A DNA stretch of 64,000 bases from Malacoraja senta (GCA_038087875.1 CM075987.1:28212001-28276000); one strand, 5' to 3'; shown: positions 6,401 to 59,503, counted from the first letter of the stretch. Numbers and translations: made by a program. The notes: generated from the sequence alone by a model not told the origin.

Positions 6401-7820
6401 TTTTTACAACACTCTTACCCCTTATACAATTATGTTGAAAAGTGGCCCTTTTTGATTTTTGCCCTGGATTTGTCTGCCTGCCACTTTTACTTTTCACCTT
6501 GCTACCTATTGCTTCTACCCTAATTTTACACCCCTCTGTCTCTACGCTCACACATTTAAGAAACCCTTTCCCTTTAACTCCATCCTCAACTATCCTATTC
6601 GATACCCCACCCCCCTTATTCAGTTTAAAACCACCCGTGTAACAGTGGCAAACCTGCCTGCCAGAATGCTGGTCCCCCACCTGTTAAGATGCAATCCGTC
6701 CCTTTTGTACAGTTCCCTTTTACTCCAAAACAGATCCCAGTGATCTAAGAATCTAAATCCCTGCCCCGTGCACCAGTTCCTCAGCCACACATTCAGGTCC
6801 CGTATCTCCCTGTTCCTGCTCTCGCCAGCACGAGGAACTGGAAGCAAACCGGAGATAACAACCCTGGAGGTCCTGCTTTTCAGCATTTTTCCAAGCTCTC
6901 TAAAGTCACGCTGCAGAATATTCATCCCCTTCTTTCCGACATCGTTTGTGCCGACATGCACTACCACTTCCGGCTGTTCACCTTCGCCCTTGAGGATTTT
7001 CTGCACTCTGTCCGTGACATCCTGGATCCTGGCACCAGGAAGGCAGCACACCATCCTCGAATCCCGTCTGTTGCCGCAGAAACCCCTGTCCGTACCTCTC
7101 ACAATGGAGTCTCCCACTACAATGGCGTTGCCTGACTTTGGCATTTTTGGTTTTGGCTCAACAGCCCAATTCGCATCGCAAGCCAGTCTGCCGCTCAGTG
7201 TTAAAACATCTTCTGTCCCGACAGCTTCCAAGTGGGTGAACCTGTTCACAAGAGGTACAACATCCGGGGACATTTGCATTCCATGCTTCCCTCCCTTTCT
7301 CACTGTCTCCCACCTTCTCTCTTCTAGTACCTTAGGTGTAACAATCTTACTGTAGGACTTGTCGAGAAACGACTCCGTTTCTTGGACAAACCTGAGGTCA
7401 TCCACTTGCTTCTCCAGTTCCCCAACACGGTCCTTCAGGAGCTGTACCTGGATGCACTTGTCACATTTGTAGCAGCCAGAGGCACCAGCAGTGTCCTTGA
7501 CCTCCCACATACTGCAAGCATCACACTGAATCAGCTTGCCTGACATCTCCTTCTTTTGTCTCTCCCTCTGCAGTGTTTTGCTTAGCCTCCTCTCCTCAGC
7601 CTCCTCGCCGAAGACTCTCGAGCCAAAGACTCACACTTTTCTCCCAGGGCACTTCCCTCACAAGGCCGCTCCCTAAGAGCAGTCTTGCTTATATAGACTG
7701 ATAAATTGCCTAATTTACAATCCAAATTCCTCAGTTTTCCCTCCTCTGACTCACTTCTCTCCTCCCTCTTGGGCTAGAGCCAATCAGTGTTTTCTCTTGC
7801 TAATCTTCTCCTGCTGTTGC
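3500..7820 (-). mobile_element. Near full-length CR1-clade LINE (5'UTR, intact ORF1, frameshifted ORF2, 3' tail)
   Basis: ORF1 is 6620-7546. ORF2 pieces: 5823-6680 (APE endonuclease: LNARSI, GITETW, VYRPP, MGDFN), 5391-5807, 4105-5331 (RT: NYRPVSLTS, GVPQGSVLGP, KFADD), 4014-4196, 3586-3954. The 3' short-repeat tail is at ~3500. The 5' boundary is approximate. Confidence 0.95.
6620..7546 (-). CDS. CR1 ORF1 protein, 308 aa: Cys zinc-finger/leucine-zipper N-terminus plus SGNH/GDSL esterase-like domain
   Basis: CDAC…CDKC, heptad leucines (LLKDRVGELEKQVDDL), and SGNH blocks GDSIVRG, HVGTND and DGLHLN. This is the known architecture of vertebrate CR1 ORF1p. Confidence 0.9.
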   Translation of the reverse strand: MSGKLIQCDACSMWEVKDTAGASGCYKCDKCIQVQLLKDRVGELEKQVDDLRFVQETESFLDKSYSKIVTPKVLEERRWETVRKGGKHGMQMSPDVVPLVNRFTHLEAVGTEDVLTLSGRLACDANWAVEPKPKMPKSGNAIVVGDSIVRGTDRGFCGNRRDSRMVCCLPGARIQDVTDRVQKILKGEGEQPEVVVHVGTNDVGKKGMNILQRDFRELGKMLKSRTSRVVISGLLPVPRAGESRNREIRDLNVWLRNWCTGQGFRFLDHWDLFWSKRELYKRDGLHLNRWGTSILAGRFATVTRVVLN

Positions 7821-7931
7821 TTCCAAATCTACAGCAGCTCTGAGTCTAAAGATTCTATTTTACACTTTGTTAAGAGATATATCATCTCTAGTTCACTGAT
7901 AAGCAGATTGTGAACAGAAATTCGAATAATT

Positions 7932-8205
7932 GGGCAGCACAGTAAAGCTGCTGCCTCACAGCACCAGAGACCTGGGCTCAATCCTGACCTCGGCTGCTAT
8001 CTGTGTGGAGTTTGTACGTTCTCCCCGTGACATCTGGGTCCTCCAGAATGCTTCCTTATTCCAAAGATATGCAAGTTTGTGGGTTAATTGGCCTCTGTAA
8101 ATTGCCCCTAGTGTGTAGGGATTGGATGAGAGCTAGTGTGACCCGGGTGACAATGGTCGGCATGGACTCAGTGGGCCGAAGGGCCTGTTTCCATGATGTA
8201 TCAGA
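7932..8205 (+). mobile_element. tRNA-derived SINE (HE1/V-SINE-like)
   Basis: Same head and body as the copy at 18512 (GCTGCCTCACAGC…GGGCTCAATCCTGAC…GGAGTTTGTACGTTCTCCCC), with a LINE-like tail. Confidence 0.75.
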
Positions 8206-8814
8206 CTTTGAGTATTTGCCAGTAACTTGTACTTGGACTCAATCTGTTCATATTCATGTTATTGATCTTTTACAAACATTTTAGTTACCAATGTCAGAAT
8301 CGACAGCTTTTTATACTTCATGTTCTTCTTTCATTGCAGTGATTCTACTTGATCTTCCTCTATATCTTTGTCATCCACTAGTTCAGCGTTGGCTAAATTG
8401 TTTTGTCTTATGGGAACAATCCTACACCCTGTCTGCTTTAAAGGGCAACCATTGATCAATTACAGCTCTTGGGCAGAAACCAACCCTAACTTGCAGAAAC
8501 TGATCATCCCTTTTTACACAACCGGTCCAAATGCCGTTATTTTCACCATACCCCAAGACTTCTCAACTTGACCCAAGCTTTTGTTTAACAGAAATGCTGG
8601 AAAACCTCTCGGGTCAGGGCAACGAACTGAAATATTAAATAGACTTCACCAGAGCTACTGAATGTTCCTAGCATTTCCGGTTTGTCTTTCAGTGGATTTC
8701 TGCTTCCCTGGAGGTGAAGGACGACAACATCCCCCTTGTGCTTCAGTGGGGTGAACCACTCCAAATCACACTCTCTCCTGCTAATGCTCAGTCTGCACCC
8801 AGACACAAGTCAAT

Positions 8815-9008
8815 GGTTTGGTTAAGAGATACAGCGTGGAAACGGGCTCTTCACCCCACTGAGTTTGCACCGACTGATGATCACCGTACACTGGCTCTGT
8901 GTTATCCTAGTTTCATACCCTACGCAGTAGGGACGATTTACAGAAGACAATTAACCTACAAACCCGCACGTCTCTGGGATGTGGGAGGAAATCAGAGCAC
9001 CTGAGAGG
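8815..9008 (-). mobile_element. SINE 3' portion (same family as 18512), truncated by the gap
   Basis: Reverse complement of the SINE body and tail (…CAATTAACCTACAAACC…). Confidence 0.65.
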
Positions 9009-9010
9009 AC

Positions 9011-9210
9011 NNNNNNNNNNNNNNNNNNNNNNNNNNNNNNNNNNNNNNNNNNNNNNNNNNNNNNNNNNNNNNNNNNNNNNNNNNNNNNNNNNNNNNNNNN
9101 NNNNNNNNNNNNNNNNNNNNNNNNNNNNNNNNNNNNNNNNNNNNNNNNNNNNNNNNNNNNNNNNNNNNNNNNNNNNNNNNNNNNNNNNNNNNNNNNNNNN
9201 NNNNNNNNNN
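9011..9210. other. Assembly gap (200 N)
   Basis: Run of N. Confidence 1.
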
Positions 9211-31130: not shown

Positions 31131-33374
31131 GAGACATTGTGGCAGGCTGGACCAAACGTGACCTGCGTCAGCTATTATTTTTCTCCACTAAATCCATAGA
31201 ATTAACTCAGATTTGCAATCTCATTATCACAATGAATTACCAACTGTATTGATAGCTAAAAGAAAATTATCCATACACAATAATTTGCTGCAAAGATTAG
31301 TAAAACTGTAGAGAAAGCAGCTGTGTTCACAGGCTCTTGAGGCAAATCGTATTTTTAAGACTTGGCTGTTTTCCATGTCTTTAGCTTCTGTTCCCATGAG
31401 CTAGTTCTTGTATGCCATGAATCAGTGTAGAATGTTTTACCAAATATATCTGAAATACAACATGCCTGGCTGAATATTGTACTGCTGATAAAAATCACTG
31501 GAAGAAATACAAGTGACCTAATTTTCTGTGTCCAAATGACAAAATAACACGGACAGATTATAACTCTGTAAATTATGAATCGGATTTATTATAGAGGATT
31601 AAATAAATGAACATAAATTTCAGAATTTTTGAGTACCTCATTCCAAAATACACGTAGGAAATCATGAACTCCGACTGAACTCTTACGTTGCAGATGTATT
31701 TGGGAAATTCATCACATTTTGCATCTTACACACACAGCCCGACAAGAACTGCATGCAACGTTAACATAGATGTGCTGCAATTAGATGTTGCTTTTAAACG
31801 GTTTGCTGGATTTGAACTAAAAATGCTTGCAATAAACTAAACCCTAGGTGGAAATTAACTGTGATATCACTGTAGGAAAGCAGGAAGTGCTCTGTTGGGA
31901 TATTAACAACTGTATTATTTTGTTAGCATTAACGTCAGAATAATCCTTCCTAATTCCCTTGTTTTCTCAGTTCTGTGCAAATAATCAGCTCTGCTGACAC
32001 ACCAAACCCCCCTCCTTGCTGCTGCAAATGCCTCTTCAATTATTCCTGGGCAAGGCCTATACTAAAATATCGGGGGGAAACTACCAACAGCAATCCGACA
32101 ATTTATTTGTACCAGATAAACATTTAATTTCCACACTTTAACATCACAAATTCTTTCTAAATATTCTGATTTACCTTTTCCTTTCAGTTTACCATCTTAA
32201 GAGTGCAAGTTGACTGAAAATGTCATATTTTCCCATCCATCCCTCGAAATTTAGGATTAAAAGAATTTCATTAATATTTTTGACAGATAAAATGAATTTT
32301 AGGCTTTCATTTGCTTTTTATCAATAATCATTTTCAGGACTGTACAAAACTAAGGGTGTGAGGATAGAGAATGCACAATTAAAGGTTTGAGGTCATTATG
32401 CATTAAAATATAATAGGTAAGCAAATGATTCATATCTGCTTGAATGCAGTATGTTTACTCCGTGTAGCTTCATATGGGAAATACGTTAAAATACAAAATA
32501 AACCCTCTTTCATTAGCTACTGAGTGTATACATGACTTCCAACCCAACATGACTTCCAACCCTCTTTCATTAGCTACTGAGTGCATACATGACTTCCAAC
32601 CCAACGTTTGTCAATTTTTGAAGGGTGTTTATGGACAAAAATAAAACTTGCCAGGTCTACTCATAACTCACTCTGACTAGTGGCTAATCCCATGACTGTG
32701 CTCTCCCTCCAATGGTCGAGTGCTCCTCTCATGTCTTGCCAACTTGAATTGGACCCAGTGCTCATGCTGGGACTAATGAGAACGGATCCCAAAAGCCCAG
32801 GTGCTGTGTGACAAGAACAAGCTCTCGCTGAGTCCGAGTCTCTCTGAGTCTGACCACTGATCCGCAAACTCAAGTTGTAGCCTGACCAGAAGGTGTGTCT
32901 AACCCAAGGTCTGTAATATGTGATTACGGCTGTCTCCGCTCTGCATTCTGTTGTGATGGTTCAGTTATCCTTTTGTCTTTGTTGAAATGTATTTGGACTT
33001 CAGTTGGCGCTGAACGTTCAGTCAACTAAACATGTGCTTGCAAATGTTCTGGACTTCCACGCATCTTCAGCAAAATGCTTCAGCCTGAAACAAACTGGAG
33101 CTTGGATGAAGGTGCATTTGACCTCCCACGGGTTTCATCTTTATGTCCAATCCCTCAATGTCAGGGTTAGCTGCAACCCATTCATTTAAATGATGTCCCC
33201 AACTTTGTAAAAAATGGCTGGTAAAAGTTGACATTGTTTTACACTATTTTTATGTTATTAATTCATTCAACTATTTTAAAAATTACTAAATTATATATTG
33301 AATCTATCTGAATGGTCTTTAATAGTCTCTGACTATTGGAGATATTTTTAAATGGTTCATAAAGCAGCCGAAGC

Positions 33375-34017
33375 CAAGTCAAGTCAAGTCACATTTATTT
33401 ATATAGCACATTTAAAAAACAACTCTCGTTGGCCAAAGTGCTTTACATTTGTAATAAGAATAGCACAAACAAAACAAACTACATACATATATACATGTAG
33501 CCCTCACTCAGAGGTCGTCAGGAAAGGCTTGGGAGTATAGATAAGTCTTTAGTCTTGACTTAAAAGAGTCGATGGAGGGGACAGTTCTGATGGGAAAGGG
33601 GATGCTGTTCCACAGTCTAGGGGCTGCAACCGCAAAGGCGCGGTCGCCCCTGAGCTTATGCCTAGACCGTGGGATATTCAGCAACCCCAAGTCGGCCGAT
33701 CTGAGGGGCCTGGAGGTGGAGTGGTGGGTGAGAAGACTTTTTATGTAGGTGGGGGCAAGCCCATTGAGGGCTTTGTAGACATGGAGGAGGATCTTGAAGT
33801 TTATACGGAACCGCACAGGGAGCCAGTGGAGAGAGGCCAGGATCGGGGTGATGTGGTCCCTTTTTCGAGTGCCCGTCAGGAGTCTCGCTGCGGCGTTTTG
33901 GACCAGTTGCAGGCGGGACAGGGAAGATTGGCTGATGCCAGTGTAAAGGGAGTTGCAGTAATCTAGGCGGGAGGAGATGAATGTGTGGATGATCTTTTCG
34001 AGGTCATCAAACTGGTA
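33375..34017 (-). mobile_element. L2-clade LINE 3' fragment
   Basis: …SRLDYCNSLYTG…LQLVQNAAARLL…HITPILASLHWLPV… is the L2 ORF2 C-terminus; (GACTT)n tail at ~33375-33390. Confidence 0.9.
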
Positions 34018-34504
34018 TTCCAGGAGTGTGATCTGGTCAATGTGCTGACGAGACCTACATGCCTCCCTAATGCTTCTGGAACCTTCTATATCTGGGCAGG
34101 TGGGCAGTGGTGGCGTGGAATGATCTGGAGGCCCCGATGGAGAAGGGGACAGTGGGAACTCTTGCATGATTCCCGGAGCAGAATGTCAAAGCCATTTGCA
34201 AGAAGACCTCACCAGCACAACTCTGAAACAAACAACTAAAGCGGGCGTGGCAGCTGGTGAGAAGGATCCTTCATGCCGAGCTGGATACTCACCCCTCCCT
34301 GGATACTCACCCCTCCCTTCCCACACAAGCTTCATGCCGAGCTGGATACTCACCCCTCCCTTCCCACACAAGTCATGACCCTCCTCTCACCTGGATGGTT
34401 TGAAGAGAACTGCGGTGGTCTATGTCAGGATTTGAGCTGCTGGTAAATATAGGACTCAGCGCTCCACTCTGATCAGGCACTGAGTGTCGCTGGACGATCA
34501 ACGT

Positions 34505-35346
34505 GACTTGGACAGGTTGGGGGAGTGGGCAGATGCATGGCAGATTAAGTTTAATGCGGATAAATGTGAAGTTATCCACTTTGCTAGCAAAAACAAGAAG
34601 GCAGATTACTATCTAAATGGCGTCAAGTTGGGAAAAGGGGAAGTACAACGGGATCTGGGGGTCCTTGTTCATCAGTCTATGAAAGCAAGCATGCAGGTAC
34701 AGCAGGCAGTGAAGAAAGCGAATGGTATGTTGGCCTTTATAACAAGAGGAATCGAATATAGGAGCAAAGAGGTCCTTCTGCCGTTGTACAGAACCCTGGT
34801 GAGACCACACCTGGAGTATTGTGTGCAGTTTTGGTCCCCAAATTTGAGGAAGGACATTCTTGCTATTGAGGGAGTGCAGCGTAGGTTTACAAGGTTAATT
34901 CCCAGGATGGCGGGACTGTGATATGCTGAGAGAATGGAGCAGCTGGGCTTGTACACTCTGGAGTTTAGAAGGATGAGAGGGAATCTCATTGAAACATATA
35001 AGATTGTTAAGGGTTTGGACACGCTAGACGCAGGAAACATGTTCCAGAACCAGGGGCCACAGTTTAAGAATAAGGAGTAAGCCATTTAGAACGGAGACGA
35101 GGAAACACTTTATCTCACAGAGAGTGGTGAGTCTGTGGAATTCTCTGCCTCAGAGGGCGGTGGAGGCAGGTTCTCTGGATGCTTTCAAGAGAGAGCTAGA
35201 TAGGGCTCTTAAAAATAGCGGAGTCAGGGGATATGGGGAGAAGGCAGGAACGGGGTACTGATTGGGGATGATCAGCCATGATCACATTGAATGGCGGTGC
35301 TGGCTCGAAGGGCTGAATGGCCTACTCCTGCACCTATTGTCTATTG
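34505..35346 (+). mobile_element. 5'-truncated CR1 flanked by a 42-bp direct repeat
   Basis: ORF 34484-34921 is the CR1 ORF2 C-terminal region. Identical 42-mers at 34463-34504 and 35347-35388. Confidence 0.93.
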
Positions 35347-37574
35347 TCCACTCTGATCAGGCACTGAGTGTCGCTGGACGATCAACGTCCAGGTGAAAGA
35401 CGCATTAGGGTCTGCCCAAAGCTATTGGTCTTGCAGAGGGACACAATGAAGTTTGGTGCAGTCACTGCAAGACCAGAGCCTGTCCCCGACCACCACTAGA
35501 CATGGAGTGGCTGGGCCCAGCCTCTCTAACATTTCACTCATGCAACATTTGTGATGTTGTTACACTGTAAGTGAATACTGTTTGATGCAGTGAATAAGAT
35601 AGTGACATGTCCTGATTGTGACAATCAAGTATTATTGAATTATTGTATTCCTAAAGTATATTTTGGGGGGGAAAGAGTAGATAGGCACATAGATAACATG
35701 TCCAGGTCAGTTGAACCCTGCAGTATTTCCAGCAATATTTCCCATAGCCTGTCCCTGACTTAAAATGTAAGATTATAAAGAATAATTACACTCCAGCTTC
35801 CATCAACCAAGTGAGCTCATCAGAGAAAAATCATGGAACTATGAATCAGTATAGTACGTAGTCACTGAACCAGCTCGATCACTGGAAATAGTATCATCAC
35901 CTGTGGCAGAAATATTGGGTAATCTCCTACATAATGCGACTAGCATTAGGTGCAGCACCAGGCCACTCCCTAATCACCAAAGGTGAACTGTGAAGCTAAA
36001 ACCAAGCCCATAAATATCATGCTGCATTCTTCAGTCCATGCCCCACCCACCATCACACACTCGGATCAAAAATAGAATGGCAGGAAGTCAACACCTCACA
36101 TTAATGCTGATAAAATATAAACCATTCAGACTAAAACAAAAAGCTGGTAATGTTCACTGAAACCCAAGGCTGCGGGGCATTCTCAGTGAAGTCCAAATGC
36201 TGTTCACCAGGCCTTGAATGGTCACATAAGCTCTGGTTTGTGACCATGGTGAGCAAGAAATAGTTTGGACTAAAGTTCCAACAACAAAATACAAGGCGGG
36301 GTTGTTCTTTCATAGGTTTTTCTTGCTCTCTGAACTACTGCTACTGATGAACTGTGAAGCAGCCACCTACTGATGAATTTCCTACCTACTCTTGAGGCAG
36401 GAACTTGTCGGAGCTCTACAAAGAGTTTCCAAAGCAGTAGCACTCTAACACATTATCCAGTGTTTAAACAATAGCCAGTGGAGTTACAGTGCAGTGGTTA
36501 TATCACGGGACCAACAATACAGACACCTGGAACTACAGACCCAAGTTCCATTCCCACAATATAGCATCCTGGCCATTCCTTTTCCTCTCATCTGCCTTCT
36601 AGGAGTATACAGAGGATTGAACGACTGCTGCTGTCACCTCTTTCACTGGCCATTGCCAGAGATGCTGACATGTACACTTACTCTTAACTCTGCCTCATTA
36701 GTTATTCCATCATTGTACTTTAATATTCTTTCACACTGCCCACTCTTACTCCTTCATCATTGTGCTTATCATTATTGTGTGCACACTATTTACATTGAGC
36801 TTCAAGTCAACACAGAATTTCATTACACCCTGGTATACATGACAATAAACTAATCATAAATTTGTAATCTATGAAATTAAGATTTAGTTTAGAAACTGGA
36901 GTCCAAGTCACACTTCTGCGACCGTTGTCTCCTTTCATGACCCATCAGCATGACGAAGGATGAGGAGGCGTCAGTTCATCAGCAATTATGGATGAACAAT
37001 AAAGACTGCCCATACCAGCAACACTCAGATCGCAGAAACCTTCAACATAGACTTTCCCCACGGTTTATTATAGGTGCACTTGCCCCATCTCATTCGCAAG
37101 GATAGTATCCAACGGTGTGTCCTTGTGTGTTAGAGTAGAAACATAATGCTCAGGAACATTACCCTGGACGCAGTTTAGAAACTCTTCTTCCTCTTTTCCC
37201 TTAACACTATTACAATCTTAGTTTACAGCAGAATCATCTGGTCCGATCTGGTTTATTATTGTCATGTGTACCAAGATATAGTGAAAAGTTTAGTTTGCGT
37301 GATATCCAGTCAAATCATATTGTACAATCAAGCCGTACACCAGGTAGTGCAAAGAGAAATAGACCAGAGTGCAGAATATAGTGTTACAGTATCATAGTGT
37401 TACAATTACAGAGAAAAGATCCAAAGTCCTTAGAGTAGGTTGCAAATTCAGGACTATACCCTAGCTTAAGAGAAGACTGTTAGTAGTCTGATATTGTGTT
37501 TGAGTTTGCCTTGATTGTATTTATGCATGGTATATCTAATCTGTTTGGATAGCATGCAAAACAAAGCTATACAC

Positions 37575-38159
37575 GTGGCAATAATAAACCCAGACCTAGT
37601 AGAGGGAATGAATCTTGTGGTACATGCTTTCAAGCGTTTGTACCTTCTGCCTGACAGGAGAGGGGAGAAGAGGGAATGGCGGGTGAAAAAGGTCCTTGAT
37701 CATGTTGGCTGCTTCACCGAGGCAGAGTGAAGAGTAGATGGAGTTGATGGTGGGGAGTCTGGTATGTGTGTTGGACTGGGCTATATCAACAACTCTCTGG
37801 TGGCAGAGCTGTTGCCAAACCAAGTAATGTGACATCCCCACAGGATGCTTTCCACATTGCATCTATAGAAGTTGTTAAGACTCTTTCTAGACTCTTGGAG
37901 AAATGCCAAACTTCATGTCTTCTGAGAAAACAGACCCGTTGGTGTGCTTTCTTGGTCATGACAACCCTAAGGTTGGTATAGGACAAAGTATTGGTGATAT
38001 TTAAGCCTACAAATTTGAAACTGTTGACCAATTCCACTTCATCGCCATTGATGCTGATTGGGGCATGTCCTGAAGGCAATAATTAGCTCCATCATCTTGC
38101 TCACATTAAGATAGAAGTTGTTGTCCTGGCACCATGTTACTAATCTCCCTATCTCCTTC
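37575..38159 (-). mobile_element. Rex1/Babar-type LINE fragment
   Basis: PISINGDEVELVNSFKFVG…KKAHQRVCFLRR and WCQDNNFYLNVSK motifs. Confidence 0.8.
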
Positions 38160-38359
38160 NNNNNNNNNNNNNNNNNNNNNNNNNNNNNNNNNNNNNNNNN
38201 NNNNNNNNNNNNNNNNNNNNNNNNNNNNNNNNNNNNNNNNNNNNNNNNNNNNNNNNNNNNNNNNNNNNNNNNNNNNNNNNNNNNNNNNNNNNNNNNNNNN
38301 NNNNNNNNNNNNNNNNNNNNNNNNNNNNNNNNNNNNNNNNNNNNNNNNNNNNNNNNNNN
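38160..38359. other. Assembly gap (200 N)
   Basis: Run of N. Confidence 1.
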
Positions 38360-38559
38360 CGACACAAGTGTCGCCATGTTCTGGCACTGACCAAGTTACA
38401 ATCTGTGATTACACTGACCAGACTGAATGTGACAATGTAATGAAATAAAATGGAGAGCAGCAGCTATGGGCTGCAGGATGGATCCCCTTGGTCTTGCTTG
38501 TGATGTTCTGAGCGTGATCGCAGATCTGAGGATACACGTGTTTTAGGTATCCTGTTCTT

Positions 38560-39120
38560 CCTGAAAGGTCTGGATAGAGTGGATGTGGAGAGGCTGTTTC
38601 CACTAGTGGGAGAGTCTAGGACCAAAGGGTACAACCTCCGAATTAAAGGATGTACCTTCAAAATGGAGATGAGGAGGGATTTCTTTAACCAGGGGGTGGT
38701 GAATCCGGAATTCATTGCCGGAGACAGCTGTGGAGGCCAAGTCATTGGGTGTTAAAGAAGGAACTGCAGATGCTGGAAAATCGAAGATACACAAAAATGC
38801 TGGAGAAACTCAGCGGGTGCAGCAGCATCTATGGAGCGAAGGAAATAGGTAACGTTTCGGGCCGAAACGCAAGGGTTTCGGCCCGAAACGTTACCTATTT
38901 CCTTCGCTCCATAGATGCTGCTGCACCCGCTGAGTTTCTCCAGCATTTTTGTGTACATTGGGTGTTAAAGCAGAGATGGATAGATTCTTTATTAGTAAGG
39001 GTGTCAAGAATTATAGGGAGAAGGCAGGAGAATGGGGTAGAGAGAGAAAAATAGATCAGACATGATGGCATGGCAGAGTATACTTGATGGGCTGAATGGC
39101 CTCATTTTGCTCCTATTATG
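38560..39120 (+). mobile_element. CR1 3' fragment containing a fold-back Penelope-derived insertion (~38750-38955)
   Basis: CR1 3' sequence on both sides. CATTGGGTGTTAAAG is repeated at 38743-38757 and 38956-38970. The insert is a long inverted repeat. Confidence 0.85.
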
Positions 39121-41984
39121 GTCTATTTAATAATTGATTATGAATGATTCACAATATCTAAATAAAGTTTTTTTTCCCTCATCAGTGATAAATGGTTTTG
39201 AGGAAATGTAACTGATATATATATATATATATATCTCATATGTTCATAGGATCATGTAGGAGCATTTAACTCATCAAGTCTGCTTTTCATTTAATCTTAG
39301 TTGATCTATCTTTCCCCTCTCAACCCCATTCCCTTTCCTTCTCCCCATAACCTTTGACACCGTACCAATCAAGAACCTGTAAATCTCTGCTTTAATAATG
39401 CCCATTGATTTGACCCCCACAGCATCTGTGGCAAGTGTTACACAGGTCTCAGGCACACTTGGCAACAGTGCATTGTGAAATGGTTCATGTAACTCCAAAG
39501 CTGATTTTTGTATCACAAGGCAATTATTGACTGTATTGAGAAACTGCCACATATGATTATGGATTGAAGCAGATGAAATGGAGACAGCATAGACTTTGGA
39601 TGGACAGAACAAAGGTATAATTAAAGTAAGAATGATCCACAGAGGGCAGTTACATACAGGTGTGTGTGATACAGGGGGTGGTGTGTGGTACAGGAGGCTC
39701 TTTGCTGCTGTATCCAGGGACAGACACATAAGTGAAGCTTTAGATGTTAATCTTCAATGAGGATGACTGAAATAACAAGGGCAACTCTCCAGGATCTTTC
39801 TATTATCCAGTGTTGTTTAATTTTGTTTAAACTTTTTGCTGACTATTGTTATGAAGATAATCCCGTACTGTTTTCATAAGTTACTGTGGAATGCAAGAGC
39901 TTGCATCAACTGAACTTTCTTTTGAACATTCCCGAGGGGAAGTTTAAATTAAAACAACAATATGCAGCCTGTGAGTCACCCTGTGAAGCAGAGGTAGAGA
40001 TTTGACATCAGAGTGAAAAATGTAAAAATCATCGGGAAGGCTTTTTTAGAAAAGAGACGGCGTTGGAACATGTGAAGAGTTGACGTGGTTGCATGAGGTG
40101 GAGACACAAGGAACTGCAATGGAATCTAGAGTGTGTGGTAGTCATGTTAGTGGACCTTGATAGGACAGGTACTGAGAATTAGCAGAAGTCTCTTCAATTC
40201 ACATGATAGTCATCAGTCAGGGTAACGAGTATGGTATATGTACCTCCCACTCCCAACATCAGTCTGAAGAAGTTCTTGACCCGAAACGTCACCCATTCCT
40301 TCTCTCCAGAGATGCTGCCTGTCCCGCTGAGTTACTCCAGCATTTTGTGTCTATGATGAGCATGGAAGTTGGGGCATCTTGGCTGGCATGGGCATCTTGG
40401 GCTGAAGGGCCTGATTCCGTGCTGTGTGACTCTATCTATGATAGAGTGCAAAACTGCTGGCTGTACTTAAAACCTAAGAGTCTGTGTGGATTATGGTAGG
40501 CAGGAGGAGCCCTGAAAGAGATAGATAGGAATGCATTCTTATCTTGAAGCAGCAGCAGCACACTGGCTAGTGCATTCACTGTCAGGCTGATAAATGTCCA
40601 GGGTATTCAATGGGGGAAGGGTCAATGGAGCAATGCTGTAACCACGAGGCTCATGCTGTCCTAATCATTGAACATTGCTGTTAAAACTTCAGCCTGTTGT
40701 CAGCTACAGGAAGAATGGCTTCCTTTGGTCCTGAGGAAAGATATACAATGTTTAGTTTATTGTCACGTGTACCAAAGTACAGTGAAAAGTTGTTTTGTTG
40801 CGTGCTATCCAGTCAGCGGAAAGACTATACATGATTACAATCGAGCAGTCCACAGTGTACAGATACAGGATAAAGGGAATAACGTTTAGTGCAAGGTAAA
40901 GTCCGATTAAAGATAGTCTGAGGGTCTCCAATGAGGTAGATTGTAGTTCAGACTGCTCTCTAGTTGTGGTAGGATGGTTCAGTTGCCTGATAACAGCTGG
41001 GATGAAACTCTCAGAATGTCACAACAAGAATTTCCAGGAAGATGGAAAAAAAAGTTTCCTTGAAATAAAAAGTAAGGGCATCACAAATTCATACGAATCC
41101 CTGCCACTCAAAATGGAGAAGTGACGGCCAGGAAGGTGCTGATTGCACGGTTGTCCAGTTCAGTCTCTCGCTGATCAATGCATGTGAGTGATGAAGACTT
41201 GGCTGTCTTGTTGTCTAAAATCCACACAAAACAAGAATAAAAATGCTTGCAACACCTTATGTTAACCCTCAGATCAACAATCAGACTATTATCAGGAGTA
41301 ATATTAAGAGATGCAGCACATTCCTACCTCACGAGGTATGATCACCTGAGAATCTTCACAATGCTGTGTACAAATTGTCCGGTTTCCTGCATTGTAACAG
41401 AGTCTGCATCTTAGAACATAGAACGGGCCATTTGGCCCACAATGTCTTTGCTGATCATCGTGCCAAGACCATTTCTTATCTAACTGCACATAATCATATT
41501 CCTCCAAATCTATGTGCCTATCCAAAAGCCTCTTCTATGCCATGATCGTATCTGCCATCACCACCACGTTCCAGGCACTCACCACCCTCTGTGTGAAAAA
41601 AAAGTTGCCCACACATCTCCTTAAAGTACTCGATTGGCTGCAAAGCTCTTACATGGATAGGAATATCATCTGATTCTAGTTCCATTGACATAGATGTTGC
41701 AACTCACTTCACAGTGTGTTACGGAGAGGGGGGTTCAGGAGTTTATGTGTTAGGTGGTTGAAAACAATGAGCAAGTGAAGGCTGAGAGACTAGTTGGAGG
41801 AAAGCAGAATTTAAAGTGTTGCAGTACTGAGGGAAGTTTCAGAAACAGGAAAGGGCAAGGACGGAAATAGAAATAAACTCCTGGAACACAGTCAGGCTGC
41901 CGTGAGAAATCTTTCTCTTAGACTGTCCCACAGTTGAGGATAACTTGCTTCCACTCGTTGTGAGGAGAGTGAAGAGTCCTGTGT

Positions 41985-42490
41985 GGAGTCAGTACAGAGA
42001 GTTGTGTAGACTTGTGGATGCAGCCCAGACCATCACACAAACCAACCTCCCATCCATGGACTCCACCTACACTTTGCGCTGCCTCGGCAAGGCCAGCAGC
42101 ATCAAAGATCCTATAGGATCTTTGAGCAGCATAATCAAGGACCAGTCTCACCCCAGTCACTATCTCTTCTCCCATCTCCCATTGGGCAAGAGGTAGAGAA
42201 GTGTGAAAACTCACACCTCCAGATTCAGGGACAGTTTCTTCCCAACTGCTATCAGGCAACTGAACCGTCTTCTTATCAGCTGGAGTGCAATCCTGAACCT
42301 CCCATCGACCTCATTGGAGACATTCAAACTATCTGTGATTGGACTTTTATCAGACTTTAACTTGCACTGAATGTTGTGCCCTTTATCTGTGGACACCTTG
42401 CTTGTCATTGTGTATTGTTTTCTTTGTCTGGATAGCACGCAAACTGAAGCTTTTCACTGCACCTCAGTACATGTGACAGTAATAACCTAA
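41985..42490 (+). mobile_element. Rex1-type LINE 3' fragment
   Basis: …AAQTITQTNLPSMDSTYTLRCLGKASSIIKD.SHPSH.LFS.LP.GKR. Confidence 0.8.
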
Positions 42491-43074
42491 ACTAGACAGA
42501 GGATACTGACAATGGTTTGCTTACCCTGCCAATTAATTTAGAAGATATTGTTGGAATTTCTCTAATGGAAGTTGAGGAGATAATCTATAAATAGTACAAT
42601 TATAAAAAGATATTAATGACTGATGCAGGTGTATAAGACTCAGTTTGGAAAGCAAGTTGAGAAAATGTGGTATTAAAAGCTACTGCTTAAAATGCAAGAT
42701 TGTTGTGCTAATAATTTTGTAAAACTTTGGTTACGTTCAGGAAATATGTATGGCTTTAGAGAATACAGAAGGGATTTGCTAGTCCCAGGAATCTTGGACT
42801 TCAGTAACTTGAAAAGGTGAGAGAATCTCGTGTGCGTTTGAGGCAGTGGGAAAACATTAAAGGATGGAACAGTGATGTCCAGAATCAGGAGGGTTTTTCA
42901 CAGACTAAATGAAAGTTCCATTAATTTCATTTACGAATTAGTCGTTAACCGAAGGTCATCGATGAAAGTTAATTGACAAAAGAGCCACTGGTGATATTTT
43001 ATAGTTGGTGAGGTGGAACTAGTTTCGTGTTTACATTCCCGCTCCCTTTGGCCGTTTGTGTGCCAGGGTGACTG

Positions 43075-43262
43075 TGGAGGGCGGATTGAGGAATGTCCAG
43101 TAGCGCCCGGACGGGCTGAAGGGCCGCAGCTTGTCCCGCCTCCACACCTCGCCCATTGGCTGTTGCTCGCCGCAGCGCCCGCCCAGTGACACCAATCAGA
43201 GGGCGAAGCCACGGATCCGTCATGTGTGTCCGTGTCCGCCCCGCAGTGGCGATCGCGTCCGG
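43075..43262 (+). promoter_or_regulatory. ALAD: Putative ALAD housekeeping promoter and non-coding exon 1
   Basis: CpG-rich island with ATTGG (43155), a GC box (~43179) and CCAAT (43192). Splice donor GG|GTGAGA at 43263, upstream of the acceptor at 44553. Confidence 0.7.
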
Positions 43263-43285
43263 GTGAGAGGTGAGAGGGCAGCGGC

Positions 43286-43730
43286 CTAGGCCCGGGGGAT
43301 GAGCCTGGGCCCGGGGGATGGAGCCTGGAGCCTGGGGCCCGGGGGTGGAGCCCGGGGGATGGAGCCTGGGGGTGGAGCCTGGGTCCCGGGGGTGGAGCCT
43401 GGGGCCGGGGATGGAGCCTGGAGCCCGGGGGGTGGAGCCTGGGGGATGGAGCCCGGGGGATGGAGCCTGGAGCCCGGGGGTGGAGCCTGGGGCCCGGGGG
43501 ATGGAGCCTGGGGCCCGGGGGATGGAGCCTGGGCCCGGGGGATGGAGCCTGGGGCCCGGGGATGGAGCCTGGGGCCCGGGGTGGTGAGCCTGGGGCCCGG
43601 GGGATGGAGCCTGGGGCCCGGGGGATGGAGCCTGGGGCCCGGGGGATGGAGCCTGGGGCCCGGGGATGGAGCCTGGGGCCCGGGGGTGGAGCCTGGGGCC
43701 CGGGGGATGGAGCCTGGAACCCGGGGGATA
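43286..43730 (+). repeat. G-rich minisatellite, ~20-22-bp unit GGGG(A/G)TGGAGCCTGGGGCCCG
   Basis: About 20 imperfect tandem units; it accounts for the Pro/Gly-rich spurious ORFs. Confidence 0.95.
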
Positions 43731-44575
43731 ACGCCGGCCTGAGCCCGGGGGAGGGGGGTGGTGCTGCAGGAATTCCGCGGGCCGGGCAGCCTCTGGGGAC
43801 AAGGAATGGGCGACGTTTCGGGCCTGAAGATGCTGCCCGACCCACTGAGTTACTCCAGCATCTGTGCAGGGCCCACACTGACATTGCTGTCCAGTCACTC
43901 ACTGTGTATTTGTGGATGGCCTCTGGCCATTCACCTGCTCGCTGGGCCCCTGCAGTGAGACATTGTTATCTTTCCTCATCGTGTTCACCAGAGCAGGCCT
44001 GTGCATTGGGCAGCGAAGGGTTAAACACTGGTGGGGCTGAAGTTGACGACAGGCCCAAGCAGGGAGGGAGGGACAGACTGACCACAGACTAGCTCTGCAG
44101 GTCAGCGGGGAATTGGGCGGTTCCCTCAGCCTGACTTCCCGTCTCCGTGCTGCGGCTCCACACACGGTCAGGGTCACTCTGGCGGGCTGCTGTGGTGGGG
44201 TTTAGCCGCGGTCTCTGGGTCTCCATCGTGTCCGAGTCCCAGCCTCTGGAAACACGTCCGCCACGGGGTAACTACCCACTCACCCCTCTCTCCCCACACC
44301 CCCTTCCCCACCACAGTTAGCTCCATGCCAGGTAACTTGGTGTTTGTGTTCTGCCCCCCTGCAGTGAGGGGGGTGGGGTAGGGTGGGTGTGACGAGGGAG
44401 GTGGGGCTTCACTGGGGAGCTCAGAGACAAGAACCCCTCCCTGTAGATCCAGACTCTTGGGCTGAAGGTCCCGGTGACACAGTTGTCCTGGTGTGTTGTC
44501 TCCCTGCCTCTCTGGGTCCTGGACCTCATCGCCCCTTGCCCCGTGTGTTCCAGGCGCTGAGTGCCGGCCGGGACG

Positions 44576-52487
<7,912 letters not shown>

Positions 52488-52854: not shown

Positions 52855-54073
52855 TCATGTATCTGGGGCATTACTGCGCTGTATAAAACTGCAGTTGCCG
52901 CATGCCTGCCAGTACCATCTGTGTGTGAAACCATGTGGACAAATGAAATGGAATCCTCTTTTAATAAAACCAACAATGAGAAATGACATTGTGTAGCTGA
53001 CGTGGGAATTGTTCAGTGTTTGCATGCAGTGCCGCACATTAGTCAAACTGAAGGTGTAGATTGAATATTCCTTTGGTTCAGTGGTGTTGGTTGTCCACTG
53101 TGCCAAGTGGAACACCTTTATCCTGTTTTATCAGCTGTCATGTCATGTACCTCCAGACCAGCTGATCATGGCTTGCACAACCCTTCACATCTGGCACTCC
53201 CTCCCCGTCAGAGATGCCTTGCTTCCACTCTGTCTCTGGGTCCACAGGTGGCTGATGAGGGACCTGCAGAGGCAGTTGTGTGACGGGGGGGAGGTGGGGG
53301 GGGGGGGGGTTAGTGCATGACTCTGAACCCCTGCAGAGGAACAATAATCTTAGACCCCTGTGTGCAAATTGTAAGTGATTAGACTGCAAGAGATTGGTGC
53401 GTGAGTGGCCATTACCAGTCCTTCATAACTTTTGATGTTGGAGCCACTGGGCGGCAGTCATTGAGACTGGTCATTATGCTTCTTGGGGACTGGGATAATG
53501 GAGATACCTTGAAGCCGACAGGGTCAATAGACTGAAGGGAGAGATTGAAGATGTCAGTGAAGACTGGCCAGTTGATTGGTGCATAAGTCCAGAGTCCATC
53601 TGGACTTTCTGAGTGTTTCCCCTTGTTGAGAGCAGATCTAGCTTCTGCCACACGATGCTTGGGGCAGAGCCTGCGGGGGGGGGGGGGGGGGGCACCATTG
53701 GGGGATCTCTTCCTGTTCATCTTTACGTGGCCTTTATCTGCACCCAGTAGAGATGTATCGGCTTGAGGATCAACTGTAGTCAATGAGTGGCCTTTTTAGA
53801 GAGCGTTTTGTTTTGAACACATACTACCCTTCGAACATTGAAAAAAAACGAGTACAAAAAAAACAGGCAAAATACACAAATTTAATCCGAGAGCAGTTAG
53901 CCTGGTCAGGGTTGGGAACAAAATGGTAATTGTCCTCATCAGAAACGTCATAATTGCCATCCTCATCAATGTCCTGATTGTCATCACACTGATTACCCAC
54001 CAGGTCTGAGTCATTGTCTTCCTGGATAGGGTTATGCATAATCTCTTTCAAGCGGTCCATCTGTTTCAAAATG

Positions 54074-54213
54074 ATGTTCTTCTTGCGAATGGCATGCACA
54101 GCCTAAAGTTGTCGGACAACTTGTTCAATTTGATCTTATTTGATTGTGCACGCCAGGTTGATTGCATTCGTTGAAACAGGGCGGACCACGTGAAGGTTGC
54201 AATCTCCCACCCC
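54074..54213 (-). mobile_element. 140-bp interspersed insertion with 10-bp target duplication
   Basis: TTTCAAAATG at 54064-54073 and 54214-54223. Removing the insert restores the frame …KLNILK|QMDRLKE. Confidence 0.8.
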
Positions 54214-54359
54214 TTTCAAAATGTTCAGCTTCTCTTTCTCTAGACCTTTGGTCATACGATGGAGCTCAAAATGCTTCAAGATTGTTGATCAAATGTGGTT
54301 TGTCTTTCCAAAGTTGTGACCAAAGGCTTTGCACTTCGTCCTGATCTATAAAGATGTTA

Positions 54360-55797
54360 TTTCCTCTGTATGGATCAGCTTTACATGATGCTGCAGGTAG
54401 CGATCAATCAGAAACACCTTGTTACCTTCTGGGGGGGGGGCAAGGTCTTTCGCGCACCTCTTCATGCTGCTCTTGTATGTGTTTCTTAAGTCCGTCAACT
54501 CCTCTGTAAACAGCACAGCAACCGTTATACTGACATCGATACACGGTGGGGAAATCTTCCCTCTCCAAGTTTAAATTTGGTTTCCGGCCACGTTTTTGTC
54601 CAGATTGTTTCTTCACATCCTTAATATTACACTTCTTAACTGGTATCTTACTCTTCTTCCAATATGGTTGAAAAGACTCATCTGAAGAGCCATTCTTAAC
54701 TTTTGTTTCTCTGTCATCTTCACTTGATAAATACCTTTCAGAAAGATCACTGGACTCCAATCCATCCACAACATCATTTCCTATAGAACAAGATGCTTCA
54801 TTGCAGTTAACTGTTTTTTTTCACATTTAATGGTTGAGTTGCATCTTGTACCTGAACTTTTTCCCAAGAGCACTCTGTATATTCAGGATCTGAGCGCAAG
54901 AACATATCCTTCTTCAATGGGGATTCCCAGTTGTCCACATCCACCGACCTCAAAGTGGTTCCACTGTATGTACAAGGCTGAAAGTCTGCTAACACTGGGA
55001 CAGGTTGATGCTTTGCAACATTATCACCCTCACCATTTTCAGTCACTGTTCCATTCTGAGTTGAAAGGGTTATTGAACCATCCAGAACCCTCCAATTAGT
55101 CCTTAATTCTACTGGATGGGCACTTTCTCTCATTCAAAACAACGCTGCGACTTGAATGCATGTCCAGGATGTAACTGTGGCCCTCTGTTATCAGAGTTCT
55201 GAACAGTCCTTCCAATTGCTAGGATTCTGCCTGATTCACCTCTATCCCATTGCAGACATTGGACTTTGTCTCTGGAACTGGTTTGCTATAATGCTCAGAA
55301 CTATATTCTCCACACTAACCTTTCCTTTGCTCTACCTATTTTAGGTGAGCCTGGCTTGATTGCATTTATTCATGTTAATCCTTTGTGTCTTGCTGACACT
55401 GAAAAATGGTGCGATTCTTTAGACTCATCATTTAGCTGTTGAATAACTATTAACTGGGTTCCTGCTTAATTAAAGTTTCTATACTTCGCTGACTTGATTC
55501 AATCTCAATAGGTTTGTTTTTATCTGTATTCTGGGTCAAGGGATGAAGCATGGACATGAACATTCAAATTGTGAGCCTTCACGAACCGCTTCTCACATTG
55601 GTCACAAGCAAATTCAAGTTCAGCTTCTGTCTTGTGCTTGGTCATATGGTATTTCAAGGATCTCTTTGCCTGCATTGGAATCCACAAACTTCACACAGCA
55701 AAGGTTTTATTCCAGTATGGCTCATTTGGTGAACTGACAGTTGTTTCCGCTGTTTGATAGTCTGTCCACATTCATCACAAATGTAGTTTCTTTTCAC
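54360..55797 (-). pseudogene. ZNF276: Processed, frameshifted and circularly permuted ZNF276 copy
   Basis: 55797-55450 encodes RNYICDECGQT.KQRK…CEVCGFQCRQR/SLKYHMTKHK…FACDQC…AHNLNVH…HPLTQ…IKQEPS*. ~55400-54360 encodes …GHSYILD…SDLSE…SSDESFQPY…YRCQYNGCCAVYRGVDGLKKHIQEQHEEVRERPCP/…KVFLIDRYLQHHVKLIHTE. No introns; several frameshifts. Confidence 0.88.
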
Positions 55798-56384
55798 AAA
55801 TCGAATCCTTCTTTCTCCCAAGTTGTCCATCAGCGTTTGAAACCAGCATTCCTCTTCCTTCTCCATCAATGAAAACTGGCTGTCTGATTCATCCCAACGC
55901 AGCTCCTCACTTTGATCCCGGCTGGGATTTACCTCAATCCAGTTCTGTAACTGAGTTGCACTCAAAAATCAAGGCTTTTCAACTCCACAACCTGATTGCT
56001 CTCCTTCAGCTGCTGTGTGATTGAAGCGAGATGGTCATTTTCAGATTGGGCATTGGTGAGCACATTTCTCATCTGTTTCAGCTCTGTCTGTAGCTCGGGG
56101 ATAAGCTGCCACCTTTTTCTGGCTACTTCAAGAACCTGTGGTAATGGATCCATCTTGGTCAGTGTTATAAACGTAAGGACAGTTGTCAGCCTTATTCAGG
56201 ACGTCTTGCTGCAGGGGTGTTTCCCCAAGTCTAGCTCATCTTGGCCAACCTCAGGATAAAAAGTAGGGTCAATAGCCCCATTTTCCTTTCTTGGTTCTCC
56301 TCCATTTACAGTCAATCGTATCAGATGTCTTCAACGGGAGTAATCTTCAATCTTCACGGCGGTTGGTGTCGTAGTAGCACCTGG

Positions 56385-57136
56385 TACTATCTAAATGGCG
56401 TCAAGTTGGGAAAAGGAGAAGTACAATTGGAACTGGGGGTCCTTGTACATCAGTCTTTGAAAGTAAGCATGCAGGTACAGCAGGCAGTGAAGAAAGTGAA
56501 TGGCATGTTGGCCTTTATAACAAGAGGAATCGAATATAGGAGCAAAGAGGTCCTTCTGCAGTTGTACAGAGCCCTAGTGAGACCACACCTGGAGTATTGT
56601 GTGCAGTTTTGGTCCCCTAATTTGAGGAAGGACATTCTTGCTATTGAGGGAGTGCAGCGTAGGTTTACAAGGTTAATTCCCGGGATGGCGGGACTGTCAT
56701 ATGCTGAGAGAATGGAGCAGCTGGGCTTGTACAATCTGGAGTTTAGAAGGATGAGAGGGGATCTCATTGAAACATATAAGATTGTTAAGGGCTTGGACAC
56801 ACTAGAGGCAGGAAACATGTTCCCGATGTTGGGTGAGTCCAGAACTGGGGGCCACAGTTTAAGAATAAGGAGTAAGCCATTTAGAACGGAAACGAGGAAA
56901 CACTTTCTCACAGAGAGTGGTGAGTCTGTGGAATTCTCTGCCTCAGAGGGCGGTGGAGGCAGGTTCTCTGGATGCTTTCAAGAGAGAGCTAGATAGGGCT
57001 CTTAAAAATAGCGGAGTCAGGGGAAATGGGGAGAAGGCAGGAGTGGGGTACTGATTGGGGATGATCAGCCATGATCACATTGAATGGCGGTGCTGGCTCA
57101 AAGGGCCAAATGGCTTACTCTTGCACCTATTGTCTA
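56385..57136 (+). mobile_element. 5'-truncated CR1 (same subfamily as 34505-35346)
   Basis: YYLNGVKLGKGEVQ…RPHLEYCVQFWSP… through to the CTATTGTCTA tail. Confidence 0.95.
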
Positions 57137-59159
57137 AAAGGTAAGAAATAGGAAAAAAACGTAAAGTTAAGAGAAAACAAAGAATAAACAATTATTTTTC
57201 ATAGATTGCAAGCTCATTCAATGACATCCTATTTAATCTGACAAGAGGCATATATATGAATATATAAATATAGCCTGGGACTGTATCCCATATCTGTCAA
57301 GTATCCCGATAGGCTTTGGGAGAAATTAAACACAGCAAAATCTTGAACACAGGAAAATCAAGCTGCTAGTATCTTGGTAGCATAGCCTTGAAAAGAACAC
57401 TGAGCACTCTAGTTAGATAAGAAACAGAACTTGGATGAGTGACAGCTTGAAAGAACCTTTTAAAATACCTTTTTGGAGAGCTTTTGGTTTTGAACACATA
57501 CTACCCTTCGAACATTTAAAGAAAACAAGTACAAAACAACAGGCAAAATCCACAAACTTAATCCGAGAGCAGTTAGCAAAAGTGGCGTAGCCCCCCTCGT
57601 TTCCAAACAAAAATCGTGCAAAACATTAGAGATGTCTCTCTGTATTCATTTTACATTCCCCTCCCTTATCTGACAATAGCCGTTCTGTTTAAAATAATCT
57701 TTGTTTCTATGGGAACCAATTTGCAGAATTACCAAGCTAGGGAATTCCCCAGGCAGATTTTGTGAACTAGGACTTGGAGGTTTGCAAAAGTCATCGTCTT
57801 TGTTGGAGTGAAAATTTAAAATGAACAAAGGGAGTAGTTTAATGTAATGGTGGGCGGGTTAATGTTCAAACTGGGAGTGGTCTGAGCTGTGATTGGACAG
57901 TCTACGCCAAATGTCAAAGTTTGTTTCTTAAAAGCGGATATCAACAAAAACTGTTAAAGGTAAAACCATGGCAATCTTTAATTGATTCGTCAGACGGGAG
58001 TGGCAATAGATCTACAATGAGCACAAACGTTGCTCAGTGCTTCTCGGGCTCCCACTCTCAGAACAAAGGCGAGTTAGCACAATTATACATTTTTCTTATC
58101 AGTAAAACACTCCAACCAAGTCTGAATATGGCATGACTGAAAGATTCTGTAGCCTTTCACAATATAGGAAAGCTGGGTCCAAATCAAGCTCATCCAATAA
58201 CAAGTTATTACTTATCTCTGGAGCATCAGCTATTTTTTTCAATCTTAGCTTCTTTATGGCCTTGAAAAGAAGCACATGTTATTACTGCAGGCTGCCATCT
58301 TAATGTCTTTATTGAAAAGACAACCTGTCCTTCATATTGTGTTCCATATAATTTACAATGTCATTCGGACTTGGCACCGAGCCATTCTTTTATTCTACTA
58401 GTCCATACTTTTGTAGAACGACTCCATTTCAGATTTGACTATTAGCTCTTTCATTACTACCCATTAATAAATGCCTTTAACTAGATAGATAAATACAGGA
58501 GGGAGAAATGAATACAATATATTGGTGGCAGCAGGCACAGCTGGAATGTATCGCTACATCAGTCGTATCGAAGCCTGTACATTCCATTCGATTATGATGT
58601 ACAATTGGAATGTACGGTAGCAACTACCGTAGCAACTTTGTGTTGGTGGACATTTTCCCAAGGTTTCGGCATAGTTCCCCAATCCTGAAAGGATGTTCTT
58701 GAATAAACATTTTAATTAATCCCAGGCTGGCAATGTGAAAAAATGCACCACTTCATCAAGAAGTGCTAAGTTTGCCAGCTGTAATGTCATACCTGGTGCA
58801 ATTTGGATAAACACCAGGAAGACCAGATGGTTGATGTAATGCTGTTTTGCTAAAAAAAAAAAGACCAAAATTGATGTCAATCCACGAGCAAAAAAACTGA
58901 TGGCTCGTTATTTCACTCTGTGATCGCGATGTACATTGCATTTCAGTTCTATGTTTCATAGAGAAACAAAGAACTGCAGGTGTGTGTTCATACACAAAAA
59001 GACAAAGTGCTGGAGTAACTCAGCGGGACAGGCAGCTTCTCTGGAGAGAAGGAATGGGTGACGTTATGGTCGAGACCCTTCTTCAGACCGAGAGGGCAGG
59101 AGAGACATAGACGGTGTAGTGGACAGAGCCATGCTGTGCCTGTGAGAGGTAGGTGCCAG

Positions 59160-59503
59160 TGCACAGGGCGCGCTCCCGCGGGTGCGGACCCTGGCCCAGG
59201 GCGCGCCGCCGCGCGCATTGTTTGAAGACGCGGCGGTTGCCGGGCGCTGTGTGACGCCGTCCGGCGCTGTGTGACGTCACAGGGCGCAGTGTGACGCGAC
59301 TGCGCATGCCCGTCGCCAGGCAACGCGCACTCAAACGCAAGCAACGCCCAGCGCCGGCGCGCCGACCAATAGCGAGGCGCTGTGGATGAGTGGCAGCGCG
59401 GCGGGCCAATGGCCATGTGGCGGCGGTGACGCGGGATGATATAACCGGCACGGCGGGCGTTGGACGCTCATTGCGCGACCGCTCGCTGCCCGCTCCACTT
59501 GCC
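59160..59503 (+). promoter_or_regulatory. CpG-island promoter of the beta-tubulin gene
   Basis: CRE palindrome TGACGTCA at 59272-59279 plus TGACG half-sites, NRF1-like TGCGCATGC at 59301, CCAAT at 59366 and 59406, TATAA at 59440, and Kozak GCCATG. Confidence 0.85.

Follow-up and report, generated by a model that had tools for sequence, protein, structure and literature searches.

A patchwork of pieces from four genes, namely thrombospondin-2 (THBS2), a CRACR2/EFCAB4B-like gene, BICD and ZNF276, was found in a 64,000-nt stretch of DNA from Malacoraja senta (GCA_038087875.1 CM075987.1:28212001-28276000; the whole stretch is hereafter called the window), where it follows a sequence resembling a long terminal repeat (LTR). 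All of the pieces are read on the minus strand, and on that strand they are nested: CRACR2-like sequence lies within thrombospondin-2, and BICD and then ZNF276 lie within the CRACR2-like sequence. The full order is THBS2, CRACR2 residues 450-457, BICD, CRACR2 460-471 followed by 110-147, ZNF276 517 to the end followed by 242-517, CRACR2 149-179 followed by 328-352, and again THBS2 (Table 1). An earlier note on this DNA had described a CRACR2 retrocopy with one ZNF276 insert. The nested four-gene chimera is real and is bigger than that description: the CRACR2-like sequence is itself inserted in thrombospondin-2, the coiled coil upstream comes from another gene again, the order within ZNF276 is permuted, and all of this belongs to a repeated element with an LTR-like repeat at its head. 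The permuted order and the enclosing thrombospondin-2 pieces are features that the note did not contain. The identities of the pieces, their order and junctions, the lack of introns, the other copies and the LTR-like boundaries are demonstrated by the observations that follow.

The ZNF276 identity was supported by all 18 matches (18/18) among 210 candidates. Compared with Amblyraja ZNF276, the insert is circularly permuted, running from residue 517 to residue 631, the stop codon and the 3' untranslated region (UTR), and then from residue 242 to residue 517. Its start and end coincide in the parent with an overlap of GAAA, and the chance that two ends meet within 4 nt on a messenger RNA (mRNA) of 1.9-3 kb is ~0.3-0.5%. 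One contig of another skate run (X15 record 11) spans 55413-55790, from the back half into the 3'UTR. The flanks of the insert belong to one gene, as had been claimed: for both, the matching skate proteins were P0019 and P0020 (2/3 candidates), which carry the names EFCAB4B-like and RASEF-like. Their adjacency in the parent, on which the claim depended, was also checked, and residue 147 is followed directly by 149, with residue 148 broken and one base lost. GAAA is present at both junctions (55815-55812 and 54363-54360), and after the right flank the host does jump far downstream, to residues 328-352. The filler reported at the left junction exists, but it has 15 nt rather than ~16 and stands between two AAAGAA copies 21 nt apart. 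The peptide that the note quotes as ELHRMTK...KQMDRLKE does not run on unbroken, for the 137-bp high-copy insert with its 10-bp target duplication lies within it. Parent nucleotide matches at the junctions were deduced from the two ends in the window together with the proteins.

We examined the ZNF276 and BICD pieces for traces of splicing, with the exon borders of ZNF276 deduced from protein isoforms. The ZNF276 piece runs without a gap over the borders at residues 288/289, 340/341 and 364/365. The upstream coiled coil (56096-56001), which had been taken as CRACR2, proved to be BICD, and the KKVAA motif upstream of it belongs to the same exon, with a deletion in between. Among genomic open reading frames (ORFs) over this BICD exon, 29 of 31 have V (GT) after KE or RE, and the window reads on as SNQVVEL. 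The BICD piece therefore appears to derive from a spliced mRNA, because the window stays coding past a site consistent with a GT donor. A spliced-mRNA origin of the cargo is thus supported by ZNF276, in which three exon borders are crossed, and by BICD, in which a donor site is crossed. When all A or T runs of at least 8 within 53700-58460 were listed, they were found only at 53841, 53856 and 54814 and at none of the junctions; the single orientation of the pieces and the absence of poly(A) at the junctions were correctly stated in the note.

Over 384 covered residues, the ZNF276 pieces were 90.6% identical to Amblyraja, 90.9% to Leucoraja, 88.3% to Rhinoraja, 79.7% to Mobula and 70-73% to sharks; they thus carry ~9% amino-acid divergence, together with stops and frameshifts. 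At 24 skate-diagnostic sites, the window agreed with skates at 22, with others at one and with neither at one. At 20 sites that split Amblyraja/Leucoraja from Rhinoraja, it agreed with the former at 14 and with the latter at 4. These comparisons indicate that ZNF276 was captured within the skate lineage.

The CRACR2 block within thrombospondin-2 is also out of order, residues 450-471 preceding 110-352, and BICD splits it between residues 450-457 and 460-471. At the back-junction from residue 471 to residue 110, an Asn codon is common to both sides, which looks like microhomology. As a control for the eight-residue piece before BICD, 28 comparable 8-mer matches in the window were considered, of which 5 fall outside the patchwork, in three places.

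To find other copies, contigs of other skate runs were matched to the block, seven of 21 listed runs being drawn on, and a border was counted as bridged when at least 31 letters lay on each side of it; the contig pieces were the best 32 of ~487,000 in the comparison with the block, and 24 listed pieces plus 1,423 further ones in the comparison with the LTR side. All 30 bins of the block were covered in 4/4 runs, which come from the organisms labelled A, B, D and H. Summed contig depth is not copy number, and deep bins were taken as 'many' only: the core bins of X1 had a summed depth of 3,038-9,127 versus 24.4-30.7 for unique flank contigs, and these flank contigs (24.4 and 30.7) showed zero differences from the window. 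Bridging contigs were X1 record 2 and X4 record 25 at the right ZNF276-CRACR2 junction, X2 record 20 at the left one and X15 record 12 at the THBS-CRACR2-BICD junctions. Database proteins add to this. P0021 contains the BICD junctions with 98% identity, and the CRACR2-THBS2 junction is present in P0054, P0055 and P0056. RefSeq annotates the latter two as 'thrombospondin-2-like' on two Leucoraja sequences, 61.9 and 113.5 Mb long. Both models start with CRACR2-derived residues and are copies of the chimeric element rather than ordinary paralogs. The chimera is amplified and found across skates, and is no lone retrocopy.

These copies bear on the possibility that the assembly fused transcripts or repeats. 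The window contains two gaps of 200 N elsewhere, and the whole block is spanned by none of the contig pieces listed, as an artefact would allow. However, the junctions are found again in runs from more than one organism and in proteins of independent assemblies, and the pieces carry the divergence, stops and frameshifts noted above. The bridging contigs largely refute an artefact, and we regard it as extremely improbable.

Table 1. Features of the chimeric element and of later insertions, listed in the direction of the minus strand (positions in the window)
Feature	Position	Strand	Support
LTR-like repeat, 542 bp, TG...CA, ATTAAA hexamer ~70 bp before end	57912..58453	-	Depth and loose ends
Primer-binding-site-like TGGCGTAG, two bases past LTR end	57902..57909	-	Window letters
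Leader / non-coding internal region ending in pyrimidine tract	57137..57901	-	Multi-copy, X1 summed depth 166-7,229
Repeat R, first copy, 110 bp	57468..57577	-	91% identical to 53791-53901
Long interspersed nuclear element (LINE) 3' end, in pyrimidine tract before CCAG	56385..57136	+	93% to 34607-35343, other window copies
Piece after splice-acceptor-like CCAG, multi-copy along with cargo	56206..56380	-	X2 record 22 bridges to THBS piece
Thrombospondin-2 type-3 repeat, left piece, P0057 residues 843-859	56151..56205	-	13/17 identical; PDB 2rhp 256-275, E 7.3e-5
CRACR2-like piece E1, residues 450-457	56127..56150	-	7/8 to P0020, directly precedes E2 in parent
BICD piece, internal deletion, crosses exon junction	55980..56126	-	Pfam BicD E 2.6e-11; 24/32 to P0023, P0024
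CRACR2-like piece E2, residues 460-471, joined back to 110	55930..55962	-	12/12 to P0020
CRACR2-like piece B, residues 110-147, left flank of ZNF276	55815..55929	-	29/38 and 27/38 identical (P0019/P0020), ungapped
Junction unit, 21 nt: AAAGAA + 15-nt filler, second AAAGAA after	55794..55814	-	Window letters
ZNF276 back half, residues 517-631 and stop, frameshifts	55450..55793	-	38/44, 33/36, 32/35 identical to P0001
ZNF276 3'UTR, then old interspersed-repeat fragment ending at back-junction	55188..55449	-	63-69% to 37492-37561, 40924-40996, 45476-45564
ZNF276 middle part, residues 242-517, intron-free, frameshifts	54360..55187	-	Protein comparison
CRACR2-like piece C, residues 149-179, right flank of ZNF276	54269..54361	-	23/31 and 24/31 identical, ungapped
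CRACR2-like piece D, residues 328-352, interrupted	54043..54267	-	13/18 left part; uninterrupted in P0054, P0055
Very high-copy insert, 137 bp, 10-bp target duplication	54077..54213	-	Loose ends at 54077, 54213
Thrombospondin-2 type-3 repeat, right piece, P0057 876-904 then about 941-956	53902..54042	-	21/29 identical
Repeat R, second copy, where THBS sequence stops	53791..53901	-	91% to first copy

Upstream of the cargo, the summed depth of X1 was 32,890-50,485 over 57994-58420, and the LTR-like block was ~10x deeper than the interior of the element. The repeat depth stops at 58453 and has dropped to 24.4 past 58481. Loose ends with unrelated flanks were observed at 58453 (X17, X19) and at 57912 (X1, 13 contigs, agreement 0.4), and contigs of X17 and X19, which may be RNA runs, cover the LTR-like repeat but barely the leader. 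The excess depth and the unrelated ends of this 542-bp repeat are as solo LTRs would give. The primer-site-like 8-mer TGGCGTAG has three occurrences in the window, both strands counted. In the predicted leader fold, which did not exceed shuffles (z -1.45), the primer site pairs with an inverted copy of this 8-mer at 57583-57590, which lies behind a purine run ~320 bp downstream of the LTR. Matches to Rfam families within 53000-59500 numbered 0. ARAGORN reported 0 tRNAs. Taken together, the carrier is likely to be a non-autonomous LTR retroelement of skates. A transposase in the upstream repeat was considered and dropped (no Pfam match, and Atlas scores for a stop-free 59-aa frame all <0.9, with UvrD at 0.83). 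An arrangement of two head-to-head LTR units was not supported: the leader halves scored 36, and 13/300 shuffles scored as high, and for the LTR against the R region or the 3' flank 42-149 of 300 shuffles did so.

We consider it rather likely that the patchwork is the cargo of a repeated, non-autonomous LTR element that captured mRNAs in skates by successive template switching, with ZNF276 acquired by a linear loop-back. Template switching between cellular RNAs, one of two origins offered in the note, agrees with the intron-free pieces on one strand, the lack of poly(A) and the short shared joints; the other, a one-off templated repair, is disfavored because the chimera has many copies. The reverse transcriptase would have switched, in successive rounds, onto mRNAs packaged with the element RNA. 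At ZNF276, it would have departed from the element RNA within the CRACR2 piece, landed at codon 517 of the ZNF276 mRNA via a shared AAA, copied back as far as codon 242 and then switched to the 3'UTR of this mRNA. Ribonuclease H (RNase H) degrades copied RNA during minus-strand synthesis, as described in a passage of PMC12789967. Its cutting could have given the mRNA a new 5' end at the landing site and the element RNA a new 3' end at the exit site, so that the enzyme would run off the mRNA at the former and rejoin the element RNA at the latter. The outcome would be one full permuted turn with a GAAA overlap and a near-exact rejoining of the host, and no covalent circle would be involved. The CRACR2 block in thrombospondin-2 may have followed the same path, with a later deletion of 15-16 THBS2 and ~97 CRACR2 residues across its left junction. 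The chimera would then have been amplified, and the copy in the window would later have gained the CR1 end and the 137-bp insert and lost its 3' end.

Several observations weigh against this reading. The window contains no second LTR, no target-site duplication of 4-6 bp and no polypurine tract beside a 3' LTR; the sole candidate for a target duplication was a match of four letters between 53726 and 53415, neither of which adjoins an LTR end. A six-frame Pfam scan covering 53699-59102 detected no gag, pol or env domains. The border between the LTR and the leader and the back-junction of ZNF276 were bridged by no contig piece among the best 32 and the 24 listed ones. The primer-site-like motif, which we take to match the 3' end of tRNA-Ser, comprises 8 nt only, and a literature search brought no confirmation of the match. 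The insertion of CRACR2 into THBS2 is not an exact turn, the residues stated above being absent. Moreover, in the cases described in the relevant passages of Tan et al. (PMC5131818), cargo usually replaces part of the element, whereas the rejoining of CRACR2 here loses one base.

Some of these gaps would be expected if the patchwork had been assembled at the DNA level, with complementary DNA (cDNA) fragments inserted into breaks as templated patches, or had come from template jumping of the non-LTR kind, and if another carrier (a Helitron, a DNA transposon or a segmental duplication) had spread it, the LTR being a neighbor inserted at the edge. The missing 3' LTR and target duplication and the unbridged link between LTR and leader agree with such an origin, as do the intron-like tract with its acceptor and the 110-bp repeat R on both sides of the cargo. 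However, the primer-site-like motif lies directly past the LTR end in the orientation of the cargo, the repeat depth stops exactly at the outer edge of the LTR, terminal inverted repeats were not found (the true 3' end of the element may be missing) and there is no poly(A); we consider this group of explanations improbable.

LTR-mediated capture is also compatible with a covalent circle, either a non-canonical RNA circle or a circularized cDNA, as the source of the permuted ZNF276, copied once round or crossed over into CRACR2 at the shared AAA. A circle gives the identical ZNF276 order, which is a further point against the loop-back, and a single crossover would leave the insert permuted, a short overlap present twice and the host rejoined exactly, as observed; mouse pseudogenes derived from circular RNA (circRNA) are described in passages of PMC4897178 as LTR-flanked and without poly(A). 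On the other hand, the back-junction joins the repeat fragment of the 3'UTR to codon 242, which falls within the isoform-bounded block 184-288, and it is thus not a splice junction; a back-spliced circRNA is therefore unlikely. The CRACR2 back-junction, with its common Asn codon, also resembles microhomology. A covalent circle of any kind seems to us unlikely, with slightly more in its favor than a DNA-level origin.

Returning to the linear loop-back, capture by the known type of switching leaves two reciprocal fits unexplained: ZNF276 ends at its own start, and CRACR2 resumes one base off. As a tentative and somewhat doubtful generalization, a reverse transcriptase with RNase H might loop once round a linear mRNA and return almost to the base at which it left. 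This element might preserve two such events as a nested fossil record, the one at ZNF276 exact and the one at CRACR2 blurred by a deletion, and some supposed fossils of circular RNA might have the same origin.

Further sequences were observed within and around the element. Other copies (P0054-P0056) extend into the C-terminal domain of THBS2 and the window copy stops at the second repeat R; it is therefore taken to be cut there at its 3' end, because these copies run further. The direct repeat R brackets the cargo, and at five sites where its two copies differ, other copies of the element have the letters of the 3' one. A contig of X19 matches repeat R with the same two boundaries and other flanks, and scans of metagenome and viral contigs for the exact pattern of the repeat gave 0 matches. 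The 137-bp insert splits the CRACR2-like sequence at residues 345/346 and is later than the cargo, because P0054 and P0055 lack it. The LINE 3' end, to which we assign the label CR1 by assumption, was presumably inserted after the cargo; X4 record 30 ends at its edge with 13 letters left over. The piece at 56206-56380 contains a 60-codon frame with one stop right behind the pyrimidine tract and CCAG; it had no match in Pfam (six frames) or PDB (two frames), and it may belong to the element itself or stem from a fifth gene that was captured. PDB matches to 'Cake/Bagel' entries were set aside as low-score designed repeats, and P0022, which is a tandem repeat from coconut, was discounted as one chance match among 32. 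On one side of the element lie ALAD exons (48675-52220, Pfam), and on the other MREIVH at 59471, presumably a beta-tubulin-like start, although it has no Pfam match; the LTR-like repeat is ~1 kb upstream of this start on the opposite strand. Elsewhere in the window, a long LINE on the minus strand (3508-7630) encodes an ORF1 with a GDSL/SGNH esterase, an endonuclease and a reverse transcriptase, and GC-rich tandem repeats of short units with long open frames occupy 43274-43898 and 48829-49230.

The copy of the chimera in the window is broken. A nested four-gene chimera amplified across skates would extend LTR-mediated exon shuffling to cartilaginous fish, and the proposed loop-back suggests, in a form open to testing, how circularly permuted gene copies could arise with no circular RNA involved. 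In skates, copies annotated as genes in RefSeq would make gene families seem larger than they are and would cause reads for THBS2, ZNF276, BICD and CRACR2 to be mis-mapped.

Known systems resemble this element in part. In the passages of Tan et al. 2016 on LTR retrocopies (PMC5131818), reverse transcriptase switches onto co-packaged mRNAs at short matches, later cycles amplify the products, and a four-gene mouse retrocopy, 'Super', is described within MERVL. Our element is like these retrocopies in that partial spliced mRNAs of several genes lie in a probable LTR element, with no poly(A) and with re-amplification; joints with short shared sequence or a few bases lacking a template may be a further parallel, to judge from the GAAA overlap, the 15-nt filler and the shared codons seen in the window and the proteins. 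It differs from the cases in those passages in its nested pieces, the full permuted turn of ZNF276, the near-exact rejoining and a chimera common to several species, and the words 'circular' and 'rearrange' are absent from the main text of that paper. Whereas LTRs flank those retrocopies on both sides, only a 5' LTR-like repeat is present here, in a copy that looks 3'-truncated relative to P0054-P0056. Maize Bs1, with fragments of three genes, and human FAM8A1/HERV-K are further LTR elements with host mRNA fragments, as cited in PMC5131818; the citing passages mention no permutation and no nested four-gene family in vertebrates. Passages of Dong et al. 2016 (PMC4897178) allow that circRNA-derived pseudogenes can be mimicked when reverse transcriptase copies across a linear RNA whose ends lie close together. 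The element shares with such pseudogenes the non-colinear mRNA order, the lack of poly(A) and the LTR context, but they join exon to exon by a back-splice, as these passages have it, and here a 3'UTR is joined to the middle of an exon. Unlike an L1-type processed pseudogene, it has neither a poly(A) tail nor a target duplication of 7-20 bp. Helitron and Pack-TIR capture draws mainly on genomic DNA, whereas the cargoes here are spliced or without visible introns, and no terminal inverted repeats accompany them. A mobile element with fragments of several host genes is nevertheless common to both, as judged from parts of PMC4778049 and PMC8277862. The literature searched, which left most subscription papers out of reach, held no report of the element itself or of a permuted cargo in an LTR element. 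The capture route, LTR-mediated and involving several genes, is known; the nesting and the one-turn permutation appear to be new.

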